Shown piece by piece: positions 761 through 54,088 of a DNA stretch of 64,000 bases (position 1 is the stretch's first letter; every line of letters begins with the position of its first letter). A program made the position numbers and the translations under genes. Source of the DNA: Eledone cirrhosa (Eukaryota); NCBI GenBank assembly GCA_964016885.1, contig OZ024740.1, positions 70,680,001 through 70,744,000 of the forward strand. Direction: 5' to 3'. Below the pieces are notes generated by a model. It saw only the letters and a list, made by a program, of their open reading frames with translations. It was not told where the DNA came from and made no database searches.

Positions 761-806
761 GGCTTTGATAAGCATCAATAAATGCAGAAACAAGGCCTTG
801 TCAGCT
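761..806 (+). ncRNA. Type I hammerhead ribozyme, U3-A8 core variant
   Basis: GGCT TTGATAA GCAT-CAATAA-ATGC A GAAAC AAGGCCTT GTC AGCT; palindromic stem III; enclosed by the long stem AATTTCAGCAGACAGG/CCTGTTTGCTGAAATT. Confidence 0.8.
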
Positions 807-1196
807 TTATCTCCCCCTGTTTGCTGAAATTAAAGTAAGTGAGTCTGTCACTACTCTAAAACAATAGCATACGGTCTTCAAAATGCTTTTAATTAAGCAT
901 AAAGTGTATTGCAAAATACACTATATATACATTCATATATATATGGCTATTTCAGAGCACCAATTCTAATATATATATATATATACACACACATGCATAC
1001 GTATATATTGAATGTCTGCGTTACGAGGATCGGGAAAACCACAGATCAGAGTAGTATTCGATAAATGGAGGAATGCGGAGTGGATATATTAACATGGTAG
1101 AAATTCGAACGCCAACTCGGCTTGTAACTTCTACAAGCTTGAAGAGATTACAAGCTGAAACCGCCCGCGGTCGAGTCTCTAAAACATACTTCTATA

Positions 1197-2187
1197 TCTA
1201 CTTATATATATAACCAGCAATTTCTCTGTCTGTCTGTCCGACAGTGGAAACACGTGCGTAGAGAGAGAGTGAGAGTGAAAGAAAGAGACAGACCACGAGA
1301 GGGGGATAGCGGGAGGGAGAGAGGGAGAGAGAGAGAGTGAATAGACGCTAAAACCCGTGCTACAGAAACATTACCTTCCCCTCTCCACTGACTTTGGTCA
1401 CTGAGGCCGAGGGAATCGCTGGTTGCTATAGAGACACCTTGCACAAGCCAGAAGTAACCAGTTCGAGGCGGTTCTGACTTGACACCATGCGAAGAAGGTT
1501 TCCATTGAATTTGTGGTTTGAAGAAGGTTGCCATTGAATTTGTGGTTGTTGCTGCTAATAATAAGGACCATTTGAAGAAGGTTGCCATTGAATTTGTGGT
1601 TGTTGCTGCTGATAATAAGGACCATTTGAAGAAGGTTGCTGCTGATGAGGTAATTTATTAATCAGATTGTGCAGTTCCATAACCTACGTTTGATTTGTTC
1701 AATTTTTTTCTTCAATTTTTTTGTTGTTTTTTTTATTTCTTATTGAAAAAATATAAATAATAAAATAAGGTTAGAAATTTAAATACAATTAAATACGATT
1801 TAATTTCCATTTCCAGCAGCCAATGTCCAGTGTTCAATTTCATGAAAAAATTGGAAATAATTAAAAAAATTGAAGTTTAACTTTTGAACATTTGTTTTGA
1901 CAATAAAAACATATTTCCTTATTCACACGTAATGGTATGATTAAAATTTCATAGGAATATTTTTTTCTAACCGCCAGTTATTTATTTTCTCCTTTTTCGT
2001 TTTAACATATATTTATTTCAAAGATTTCACCGTATAGATAACATATATATTTATACATGCATAAAAGACACACCGAGAGACGGTGAACATGTGGTGCCGA
2101 AAACATTTCTCATCCAAATCTCAACAATATCAGTATATACACTAGATTTGCTAGCAGAAAACCGCCCACCGGGTGGTTTTCTGCTAG
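1197..2187 (+). mobile_element. Non-autonomous Helitron A
   Basis: 5' TC..TATATATA..(CTGT)n start; 3' hairpin ending in CTAG followed by T. Confidence 0.65.
1491..1645 (+). repeat. 54-bp minisatellite inside Helitron A
   Basis: Unit GAAGAAGGTTGCCATTGAATTTGTGGTTGTTGCTGCT(A/G)ATAATAAGGACCATTT, two full copies plus partials. Confidence 0.9.
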
Positions 2188-3594
2188 TCTATATATCTAA
2201 AACAGAGAATGTCTGTCTGTCTGTCTGTCTGTCCGATCACTAAAACTCGAGAACCACCCAACCGATTGTTTTCAAACGTTACACATGTAATACTTATGGT
2301 CATGTGAGTGTTTTGAAAAACGAATTTCAAATTTTCAATAGCCTAGGGACCGCATTAGGCGATTTAGCTATCTCACTCTATAATTCTTGGTCTTTCTCTT
2401 TTTAGATAGATACATAGATATAACGCTGCGCCCTTATAACATCTGTCTGTATGTCTGGCTGTCTGCATTACGTCATTATGACGCGGTGTGTGTGTGTGTG
2501 TATGTATATATATAGTGTGTATATATAAATATATATATATAATGTGTAACGTTTTTCGAAATATTTACTTCTGCGTTCACAGACTGATTTTTTTAGTTTC
2601 AGAAGATCCCGTTTAGGGTGGAAGCAGCGATTCTTTGCTTAAACTTTAATCTGTTATTTTTATATATTTTTATATATATTTATATATATATATATATATA
2701 TATATATATATATATATATATATATATATATATATATATATATATATATATATATATATATATATATAAAGACAGTTCAAGAGTAAACCAATCTTAAATA
2801 GGGAGATAGAGATAGGAGAGGAGAGATTGGTGAAGGTATTAGAAGCCAAAAGCCTAAAGACATGTGCTCAATGTGCAATATGCAGTCGGAAGCAGCTTAC
2901 AAACAATTGTAAACGGACATTATTATTCAAAACTTTAAACTGCAATTAATGTTGACACTCTTTAACTAACGTTTTCTAAAGAGAGAGAGAGAGAGAGAGA
3001 GAGAGAGAGAGAGAGGGGGGGGGGGGATAGAGAGACAGAGGAAGATTCAGAAAGAGAGAGATAGGCCGTTATACAGAGGAAGATACAATTAAAGTATTAT
3101 ATATTCAGAGAGAGAGAGAGAGTCTAGAAACGGCTTAAACTATAGATCGTCTGATCTATAGGAAGGTTCAACAATATTGCGTTAGCTTTTATAAAGTGGT
3201 CTTAGTCTTTGATTTTACATAACAAAAAAAAATTGATACTATTTGAAATGAATCTACCCTCCAGCTTTTATCCATATACTACTTACAGACAGTACTAACG
3301 AAGCAACACTTCAGAAGCAATGTTATGCGGTATATTGCTGTGTTTCAGCTGACGTCCTTTGGGAGGCTGAAAAAGATCATACTGACTATGGTTATTTCAC
3401 AACATTTAAAACCCAAGGCCAATACAACCATTTAATCGGCAGTTTACTCCCCCAGCCTAATAAGGAAGTTTTATGATTGTGTTTTTTTATGTCTCTCTCA
3501 CACACAGAAATTACGGTCTCACCTTATACCAGACAACACATCCAATACAGTCGTGTTCTCTCTTCTCCCGGGCGAAGCCGGGTACCTCAACTAG
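2188..3594 (+). mobile_element. Non-autonomous Helitron B
   Basis: 5' TCTATATATCTAAAAC..(GTCT)n; 3' hairpin CCCGG-GCGAAG-CCGGG at 3567-3582, then CTAG|T. Confidence 0.8.
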
Positions 3595-3744
3595 TATATA
3601 TATATATACATATATATATATATACATATATATATATATACATATATATATATATACATATATATATATATATATATATATATATATATATATATATATA
3701 TATATATATATATATATATATATATATATATATATATATATAGT

Positions 3745-4132
3745 ATATGAGAGACGTAAAATAAGAAAATTATAAAATTAACTTACTAAAATATCACTTC
3801 CAACTAATTAGTTTCTGGAATGGAATTATTTTTTAATAAGTTTCCAGAGTCCCCGCTTTGCCTGGAAACTTAGCTGAGAATAGACTTCCCTGACGACGGA
3901 ATGTTTCTCTTTATCTTCTTCGGAAAATATATTTACTCCATTCCAGAAACTAATTAGTTGGAAGTGATATTTTAGTAAGTAAGTTAATTTTATAATTTTC
4001 TTATTTTACGTCTCTCATGTTATTGTTCTGCAACCCCATGCTTAACCACAATGTTACTAAGACAAAACCTATGTATTTGCTAACATTGATATGCATCTGT
4101 ATGTATATATATGTTACTAGATATTAATTCTT
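3745..4132. mobile_element. Fold-back PLE terminal-repeat remnant
   Basis: About 3748-3824 is the reverse complement of about 3938-4018; contains an HHR; bounded by (TA)n. Confidence 0.75.
3884..3965 (+). ncRNA. Type I hammerhead ribozyme
   Basis: ACTTCC CTGACGA CGGAATG...CATTCCA GAAAC TAATTA GTT GGAAGT; 6-bp stem I, palindromic stem III. Confidence 0.85.
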
Positions 4133-4819
4133 TATATATATATATATATATATATATATATATATATATATATATATATATATATATATAATAGAATAGT
4201 CGAGTATCGGAAAATCAGCTCACGAATTAACGATAAACAATATTCGATATGAGTGGCAGAGGGCTCAATAATTTGGATAAATCAGAGCTATAACTATCGT
4301 TAAATTACCAACACATAGAGATTATGCCTAAAATCGCCCGTACAGCCGAAAAAGAACGACCAGGAAGATTCGGGTCACTCAAATAAAATATCAATAAATC
4401 AATAAATTAAATGAATGTAAAAAACTTACCCGGACCCGCTAGAAGGGTGTTAAATCTAGCTTCTTGGGTTTCTGCAATTCCTTAATCCATTCGCTATCAG
4501 CCCACATAAAAAATATATAAGACTTCTAGAGAAGGAGTGGACCGGAAGAGCTTTATCAACGGGTTCCGTCCGATAATAAAGAAGTGACCTTTAGCCAGAC
4601 ACGCACATGGTGCCCAGCAAGGGAGATAACCTCTATATTAGCGAAAAAATTTTCGGTAATGTGGAAATCATGTAAGAATACAAAATATCACATATCGAAT
4701 CAGAGTGCTCAATAGACATGTTAAAATAAACAGGAGCTATTCATCAGTCAATAGAATCGACAAAAAATGTTCAATAAAATTAACTGGTCAATAGCTAGGT
4801 CTAGATATATATATATATA

Positions 4820-52742: not shown

Positions 52743-53080
52743 ATATATATATATATATATGTGTGTGTGTGTGTGTGTGTGTGTGTGTGTGTGTGTGTGT
52801 GTCTTTGTGGATGATGTTTGTTCTTGAAAAAACAATATTTCGCGGACATTTCGAGCCAGCCTGATTGACGCGTGACCTCAGCGCTGACATTTCCACCTGA
52901 CAGGATGGTAGTAGTACATTAAAAGCTTGCGCCCCCACACCAGATGGTAATATGTGGACCTAATAATCAACCCTTGAGAGTGGCCGGCGGAGCTAGAAGC
53001 TTCTAAATGCCGGCCGCCCTCCTGTCTGATTTAAACACCATGGATTTTTATCTGTTATATTCCTTCGTTATATTTTGTAT

Positions 53081-53136
53081 TACCTGATGATGTCACCGGA
53101 TTCATACTGAACCCGGTCATTGAAATGATCATAGTA
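53081..53136 (+). ncRNA. Type I hammerhead ribozyme
   Basis: TAC CTGATGA TGTCACCGGATTCA-TAC-TGAACCCGGTCATT GAAA TGATCA TA GTA then TAATAAA. Confidence 0.78.
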
Positions 53137-53184
53137 TAATAAACCTTTCAAGGATTTACACCAGTACATGCCTCCTGTTATTTT

Positions 53185-53524
53185 GTAACATGTAAATAAA
53201 CAAATAAATAAACAAATAAAAACACACACGGACACCCGGATGTAACACATGCGCAAAATAAGCACACAACACACACAAAAACAAGATGGCGTAGGACAGA
53301 ACAAAGGAGAGGCACAAAACAAAGAAAAGAATCCCCGGTCACTAATGAGGTCACAGAATGTGTGACGAAAGAACTTTGACAATATATGAACAACCGTCCG
53401 GTTGTGGAACCAACCAACCAACCGGAAATTTATAAAAAAAAAATTTTAATTTATAATAAATTGGAGTGAAAGCAACTGGTGCGTGTCTTTCTTATTGGGA
53501 ACATGACCCTCCCAAAGTATAACA
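53185..53524 (+). mobile_element. Diverged solo pLTR of the PLE 3 family
   Basis: Reverse complement of 34916-35264; HHR core mutated to CTAATGA. Confidence 0.88.
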
Positions 53525-53697
53525 GTAGAATGAACCCTTCATTCTTGCTCTTGTGTTGGCATGCGAACAGAACTGCAGACACTAATGTTTCTGGGTATCA
53601 CCTTTCATCAGTACACAGACACACACATACATATATATATATATATATATATATATATATATATATATATATATATATATATATATATATATATATA

Positions 53698-54088
53698 TAA
53701 AGAAAAAAAGTTAAAATCGAAAATGCAACTGGAGTCTTATTTTTTTTTTAAATATATATATTTATTTGGTTCCTTTACCGGTTTCGCAGTTCTTCTGCTT
53801 TTCAAAAGTAGAGTTGAGATGGAGGGTCTGTGGTTTTTCTCACAGATGTGAGAACATTAATTTTTCTCACAGATGTGAGAAAAACCACAGACCCTCCATC
53901 TCAACTCTACTTTTGAAAAGCAGAAGAACTGCGAAACCGGTAAAGGAACAAAATAAATATATATATATATTTTTTTTTAAATAAGACTCCAGTTGCATTT
54001 TCGATTTTATCTTATTTTCTTTATACTTTCACTTGTGTAGGACACCTGGGTTATTTTTCATTTTGTAAAAAAAACCTCACTTTCTAAT
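53698..54088. mobile_element. Fold-back with a U3-A8 HHR in each arm
   Basis: 53698-53844 vs 53876-54024; HHR at 53773-53808 (-) and 53910-53945 (+). Confidence 0.88.
53910..53945 (+). ncRNA. Minimal hammerhead ribozyme, U3-A8 core
   Basis: CTT TTGAAAA GCAG-AAGAA-CTGC GAAAC CG GTA AAG. Confidence 0.72.

Follow-up and report, generated by a model that had tools for sequence, protein, structure and literature searches.

The pairing of C3 with G8 belongs to the active fold of the hammerhead ribozyme (PMC3884650), and natural hammerheads with U3-A8 in its place have been recorded as a rare variant, with several examples, that was called neutral or compensatory and said already to have been shown active in vitro (Perreault et al. 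2011, PMC3088659). Minimal hammerheads with U3-A8 were also reported, with ~1,300 hits, in the Cercyon Penelope-like elements of Schistosoma mansoni (Cervera and De la Pena 2014, PMC4209133). For the Penelope hammerhead of Anolis carolinensis, single mutants at positions 3 or 8 were described as inactive and a C3G/G8C double mutant as a partial rescue (PMC11167929), while retrozymes have been described as derived from pseudo-long terminal repeats (pLTRs; Li et al. 2026, 10.64898/2026.07.22.740005). The present analysis concerns 64,000 nucleotides of Eledone cirrhosa (NCBI GenBank assembly GCA_964016885.1, contig OZ024740.1, positions 70,680,001 to 70,744,000 of the forward strand; hereafter, the window) and the 3.0-Gb genome to which they belong, where three families of hammerhead motif, designated A, B and C, carry U3-A8. 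These hammerheads are real and fixed within their families, and they are likely functional. The variant itself is not new; what this genome adds is its scale, its apparently repeated switching, for which there is a natural sister pair, and its occurrence in retrozyme-like units. The literature searched, which included few subscription papers or figures, yielded no description of U3-A8 switching repeatedly in a single genome.

A hammerhead descriptor with positions 3, 7 and 8 left free and a direct reading of the window both place seven U3-A8 cores where a preliminary description of this DNA, whose coordinates give the leftmost base of each motif, had put them:

761-806, forward strand: family A type I hammerhead, with its U3-A8 core at 765-771 (U3 at 765), an extra A at 786, the stem III palindrome at 790-801 and a predicted cut after C802.
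443-488, reverse strand: inverted family A copy, with U3 at 484, the extra A and a stem I mismatch.
305-944, no strand assigned: family A insertion, an inverted pair with arms at 305-562 and 687-944.
6492-6579, reverse strand: family B hammerhead, with U3 at 6574 and a predicted cut after C6497.
7085-7172, reverse strand: family B hammerhead of a second tandem copy, with U3 at 7167 and a predicted cut after C7090.
53910-53945, forward strand: family C minimal hammerhead, with U3 at 53913 and a predicted cut after A53942, in the pLTR of a Penelope-like element encoding a reverse transcriptase (RT) and a GIY-YIG endonuclease.
53773-53808, reverse strand: inverted family C copy, with U3 at 53805.
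43537-43572, reverse strand: family C copy, with U3 at 43569.
23480-23745, no strand assigned: decayed C-like inverted pair, with TTGAAAA kept at +23614 and -23570 and the rest of the core broken.

All seven motifs have the type I layout, with stem I open and a palindromic stem III. The core reads TTGATAA in families A and B and TTGAAAA in family C, and the cleavage triplets are GUC in A and B and GUA in C, as had been described. The earlier claim that stems I to III are intact holds for family B (a 5-bp stem I, a bulged stem II with a long extension and a 10-nt palindrome) and for family C, where they are minimal (3 bp, 4 bp and the palindrome ACCGGT). It fails for family A, both window copies of which possess an additional A between C11.1 and G12, and for the old pair at 23480-23745, which retains TTGAAAA as claimed and has lost G12 from one arm and U16.1 from the other. 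The three helices are nonetheless present in the A copy at +765 (4 bp, 4 bp and a 12-nt palindrome), and absent from the copy at -484 with its stem I mismatch and from the old pair. The extra A is not universal in the family; it was seen in 12 of 30 A loci and in 185 matches genome-wide, and the remaining 18 loci have the insertion-less core, so that a Watson-Crick 3-8 pair in a hammerhead core is present as U3-A8 in B, in C and in insertion-less A. The three families were rightly called unrelated in sequence, since blastn found only a TA microsatellite in common between their units. An additional decayed C-like hammerhead, absent from the preliminary description, lies at about 134-175.

Genome-wide counts were made with sequence patterns, since a DNA similarity search with the B motif missed even the window's own copy; duplicates occur among the matches, which should not be counted as independent events. 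For family B, 6,337 of 6,365 matches have U3-A8, with another base at position 3 in 14 (eight of them C, all with A8) and at position 8 in 14 (eight of them G), giving 8 C3-A8, 8 U3-G8 and no C3-G8. For family C, ~99.1% of 11,120 matches have U3-A8, with 61 variants at position 3 and 43 at position 8 (34 C3-A8, 21 U3-G8, no C3-G8), and for family A the state is U3-A8 in 98 of the 100 matches listed from a total of 497. Reversed-pattern controls for all three gave 0 matches. U3-A8 is the family state inherited from master copies and not a product of decay; the consensus is not CTGANGA with sporadic mutants, and a strict CTGANGA search misses these motifs, as had been pointed out.

A family-blind pattern, varied at the core only, was also run; it leaves out B and many C3-G8 families with AUH triplets and hence overstates the U3-A8 share. 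It gave 9,444 + 17,199 = 26,643 matches for U3-A8 (reversed controls 275 + 218), 13,872 for C3-G8 (68), 431 for C3-A8 (161), 324 for U3-G8 (164) and 1,545 for a purine at position 3 (1,539), so that 3-8 mismatches account for 1.1% after background subtraction. No family fixed for a 3-8 mismatch was found among the 100 matches listed per mismatch pattern, where the rows proved to be noise or stray single mutants from families already known. Together with sampled sequence, the pattern revealed six U3-A8 families and at least a dozen C3-G8 families. Besides A, B and C, the former include E, F (U3-A8 in 40 of 44 matches) and G (27 of 28). Position 7 carries minority letters in 22 of the 44 F copies and 10 of the 28 G copies, as against 4 of 88 sites at positions 3 and 8 in F and 1 of 56 in G, a contrast flattered by the kinship of the copies. 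Common to all U3-A8 families are a GUH triplet and a G10.1 directly after A9; the unpaired base that the minimal hammerhead ribozyme (min-HHR) consensus has between A9 and 10.1 is absent from A, B, C, E, F and G, and present in many C3-G8 families here.

A descriptor requiring stems, applied to 1.064 Mb of sampled sequence (36% GC), returned 179 matches versus 16 in one shuffle. A first count of 124 U3-A8 and 34 C3-G8 was dropped, as 108 of the matches (102 of them U3-A8) came from one A/T-rich satellite on contig C7. Without it, the sample holds 22 U3-A8, 34 C3-G8, 2 C3-A8 and 1 U3-G8 in recognisable families (some families were missed by the descriptor), and outside the window, over 1.0 Mb, 16 U3-A8 versus 29 C3-G8. 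The satellite itself (loci L161-L165, G000:C7:30.00-30.05 Mb) imitates the hammerhead descriptor 108 times and is a trap for relaxed searches.

Such a trap raises the question of whether the motifs could be chance matches in A/T-rich DNA. The TTGANAA heptamer occurs 82 times in the window and is uninformative by itself, 102 of the 124 U3-A8 descriptor matches were satellite, and none of the 150 of 189 Rfam matches listed for the window was a hammerhead family or reached the gathering score, nearly all being microsatellite hairpins scored as microRNA families. Against this stand thousands of copies where the reversed-pattern controls gave none, a full element with the motif in each of its pLTRs, stems III that are palindromic, and stem changes that compensate each other. 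Chance is accordingly refuted for the seven named motifs, and as a general account its probability is close to nil.

The hammerheads here resemble those of Schistosoma Cercyon as reported (PMC4209133) in being of type I with U3-A8 covariation, in lying in pLTRs or truncated copies, often as opposite-strand pairs, in their palindromic stem III and in being missed by a canonical descriptor. Unlike Cercyon, they amount to more than 26,000 pattern matches plus the 6,337 B copies, lack the extra base between A9 and 10.1, and comprise several separate lineages and a C3-G8 sister. The compensatory pair is the same as that of Perreault et al. 2011 (PMC3088659), where it is presented as rare; here it is a major class, at 16 versus 29 C3-G8 in the 1.0 Mb outside the window. 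Searches restricted to CUGANGA would overlook about one third of this genome's hammerheads, if not more.

Family A offers the cleanest double switch. A sister subfamily has common flanks and 76% identity over 370 columns, and its core reads CTGAGGA or CTGAAGA; it has 105 matches, with C3-G8 in 88 of the 100 listed (counted by eye). Stems I to III covary among 13 A-type variants, in which 96.9% of stem cells pair and 8 of 15 pairs have changed on both sides, a result reached by 0 of 500 shuffles in an analysis that leaves the kinship of the variants uncontrolled. The two subfamilies make up a natural U3-A8 versus C3-G8 pair within a 76%-identical unit, usable for bench comparison. Two U3-A8 motifs elsewhere (G000:C1:14121101 and 15859123) have a stem II resembling that of a C3-G8 family and are possibly another sister pair.

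Family C is the pLTR motif of a Penelope-like element. At locus L196 its motif flanks the open reading frame (ORF) on both sides, in both pLTRs, and at locus L192 a 770-aa ORF has RVT_1 and GIY-YIG both above the Pfam cut-offs. Head-to-tail units were found in none of 30 C loci. The Poseidon hammerhead of Anolis carolinensis likewise lies in a pLTR near the start of the ORF; it is reported to depend on the 3-8 pair, to have a C3-G8 core and to be protein-assisted in vitro (PMC11167929). A C-like subfamily with TTGAAAA and the ACCGGT palindrome reads GCAA for GAAA at three loci (L187, ~900 nt after the ORF, L108 and L083), and one genome match combines the stem II of this GCAA type with GAAA.

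Whether U3-A8 arose more than once was addressed with an RT tree of 12 rows, 9 of which have a core state; it is unrooted and was made by a quick method, and one of the states relies on a probable link and another on an old decayed copy. The nine rows require at least two changes. Family E follows the ORF of an RT lineage apart from that of C, its closest labelled relatives carry C3-G8, and a single clade of the C group and E was rejected by the approximately unbiased (AU) test (p=2.7e-9), a result tempered by the group having been named after the first tree was seen. With the A sister added, the 3-8 pair has likely switched at least three times in this genome, in a direction that the unrooted tree leaves unpolarised and with B, which has no RT, unplaced. 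The alternative is that a functional U3-A8 originated once, anciently, and was inherited by A, B and C, so that the three families would not be independent evidence. The state can indeed be old, as a probable relative of C also has it, although the RTs of the two are no more than 57% identical; A and B have no ORF by which to place them, and the G10.1 and GUH background is common to all U3-A8 families. A single origin is nevertheless a distinctly poor prospect, given the rejection of C and E as one RT clade and the close C3-G8 sister of A, and it would require several double reversions or swaps of pLTRs.

The reading favoured here, with a probability of about four in five, is that the motifs are type I hammerheads belonging to Penelope-like elements and, likely, to their non-autonomous tandem derivatives, in which the compensatory U3-A8 pair was likely kept by selection on transposing masters and likely arose more than once. 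Because the 3-8 pair is confined to the active fold, repeated double switches and the absence of a mismatch family among the matches listed suggest that catalysis was under selection in transposing lineages. Such selection would be visible between lineages and not among copies. Within-family counts cannot show it, because variants at positions 3, 7 and 8 of family C are equally frequent (61, 45 and 43, position 7 being free; p=0.14 for 7 versus 3 and p=0.92 for 7 versus 8), and the lack of C3-G8 doubles is expected by chance (0.06 and 0.01 expected). The preliminary description, which saw covariation under selection rather than decay, is therefore borne out in that U3-A8 is family-fixed and recurs between lineages, as the A sister and the RT tree indicate, and not in its expectation of within-family counts: run genome-wide, these established fixation and were uninformative on selection.

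Several points weigh against this reading beyond the reservation about the AU test. Without a root, gain and reversion are indistinguishable. In family C, positions 3 and 8 show no shortage of variants when compared with position 7. Other unusual cores have spread as well, namely the extra A in 185 A copies, CCGAAGA in 12 of 22 hammerheads of a Penelope-like element termed PLE 1 and 1,957 matches that read CAGTTGA, so the core is not strictly policed. The drawn dimer folds of A and C lie 2.2-5.8 kcal/mol above the minimum free energy (MFE) of the dimer, yet below that of two monomers. Finally, the anole hammerhead mutants were reported to leave insertion in vitro unaffected, and that ribozyme to need protein (PMC11167929), and Naiads are said to spread without canonical hammerheads (PMC8557442).

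A rival account takes the hammerheads for dispensable passengers: AT-biased or CpG mutation, together with founder effect, would have fixed U3-A8 in a few masters, which were then copied without selection on the pair. In its favour, both changes replace a G or C with an A or T, and the sampled sequence is 36% GC. The equal frequencies at positions 3, 7 and 8 in C and the proliferation of families with other core deviations fit, and the anole data make the hammerhead unnecessary for insertion in vitro. Drift, however, should fix single mismatches more often than doubles, and among the matches listed no mismatch family stands beside six U3-A8 and at least a dozen C3-G8 families; moreover, position 7 varies where 3 and 8 hold, and the stems covary. 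Neutral fixation is thus an improbable account, if a less remote one than a single origin. The matter bears on whether hammerheads serve Penelope-like elements or ride along, a question raised in published work (PMC8557442, PMC11167929). In the window, a single C3-A8 copy at -23999 reads CTGACAA, and the same family reads CTGACGA at locus L110; this copy fits CpG decay and is a possible first step to U3-A8.

Family B differs from C in its relationship to an ORF. The window insertion comprises two further features:

6418-7512, reverse strand: ~1.85 head-to-tail family B units (593 nt), ORF-less and retrozyme-like.
7508-9655, reverse strand: broken PLE 1 ORF (N-terminus and RT, endonuclease missing), joined to B at a 5-nt microhomology (7508-7512) as a one-off chimera.

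The preliminary description took B for the pLTR of PLE 1, and this assignment was rejected. The RT end of PLE 1 has 452 genome matches, and among 30 loci inspected 29 extend into the endonuclease, with the window copy the only one joined to B. PLE 1 has a hammerhead of its own, visible in 22 of the 30 loci (9 CTGAAGA, 12 CCGAAGA, 1 TCGAAGA), with C3 and G8 in 21 of the 22; the loci inspected are L206-L235, and CCGAAGA is a U4C change. The remaining (3') half of PLE 1 was not found adjacent to the window B insertion. From this one case, the join may represent a template switch during reverse transcription, which would suggest that the RT of PLE 1 could copy B RNA.

All 30 B loci inspected are made up of unit repeats and inverted pieces, with head-to-tail units in 18 (neighbouring loci overlap) and arrays of up to 5. 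For family A, whose unit elsewhere in the genome is 319-322 nt in tandem copies, head-to-tail units were found in 4 of 30 loci, again with overlap between neighbours, and arrays reach 6 in one subfamily. No own ORF was seen within 1.5 kb at 40 A loci or 30 B loci, samples that a rare full-length parent could escape, and no autonomous partner of A, B, F or G was found around the loci inspected. In sequence, A and B resemble non-LTR retrozymes: as in the metazoan retrozymes described (PMC7229834; 10.64898/2026.07.22.740005), they form head-to-tail units, each bearing a single type I hammerhead and none showing an ORF in the loci inspected, alongside Penelope-like elements. Described retrozyme circles are ~170-400 nt with canonical cores, a range that includes the A unit and excludes the B unit (591-595 nt); A and B have U3-A8. 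In contigs from four sequencing runs, no second letter appeared at 6574 or 6569 at a 10% threshold. In two runs labelled as other organisms (X4 and X5), the B unit (window 6420-7010) forms one closed 620-621-nt contig at a depth of ~8 and 99% identity; circular RNA, a collapsed array and trace DNA would all fit.

In A, B and C, all of which have a palindromic stem III, folding as a dimer is more stable than as two monomers by 5.6-13.7 kcal/mol, and the MFE structure of the B dimer is the hammerhead fold. Dimeric Penelope hammerhead variants were reportedly described by Lunse et al. in 2017. Under the mechanism proposed here, which draws throughout on published work (PMC4209133, PMC7229834), tandem or paired copies would be transcribed and their two palindromic stems III would pair into a dimer. 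The dimer would be predicted to cut after GUC or GUA, trimming the element RNA in C and, in A and B, releasing unit-length RNAs that would circularise. These circles could be reverse-transcribed by a Penelope RT in trans to yield tandem and inverted insertions at TA repeats, while U3-A8 would preserve the pair formed only in the active fold; inserted copies would then decay neutrally. A GT motif that resembles a 5' splice site, judged by the 5' splice-site consensus, lies 20-35 nt beyond the predicted cut in A, B, PLE 1 and a CAGTTGA family, as expected for a pLTR intron.

The CAGTTGA family is a Penelope family with an RT 55-60% identical to that of PLE 1 (L325:1278 and 4611 (-), L326), and its 1,957 genome matches read best as a CAGTTGA core followed by one additional T, then a stem II of 4 bp closed by a GNRA loop, GAAA and a palindrome. 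Read this way, the core would carry U4A plus A6U; alternatively, the CAG may mark the end of an intron. It is conceivable, though a long way from probable, that the genome amounts to a screen of hammerhead core mutations run by nature. In it, a protein-assisted Penelope ribozyme would have exchanged C3-G8 for U3-A8 in three or more lineages, each time with G10.1-C11.1 and a GUH triplet, and would also have spread with dead-looking cores (CAGUUGA in ~2,000 copies, the extra A before G12, U4C, and GCAA for GAAA). Should the odd cores cleave when the protein of the element is present, then in vivo the catalytic core would tolerate far more change than descriptors do, and the ~590-nt U3-A8 retrozymes would be a large missed class. 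A literature text search for odd cores gave no relevant title among the 15 of 24 matches listed, a weak negative as such cores are usually shown in figures.

The window also holds C3-G8 hammerheads at +25169/-24932, +39589, +46648, +61582, -35104 and -40228/+40343. A general repeat search of the window was dominated by TA repeats. Long near-perfect inverted repeats lie at 24833-25268, 40021-40550 and 50063-50476, the first two of which contain paired C3-G8 hammerheads. Elsewhere, at G000:C1:5738326-5752444, a canonical C3-G8 tandem family with a unit of 466-469 nt forms retrozyme-like arrays of up to ~31 copies.

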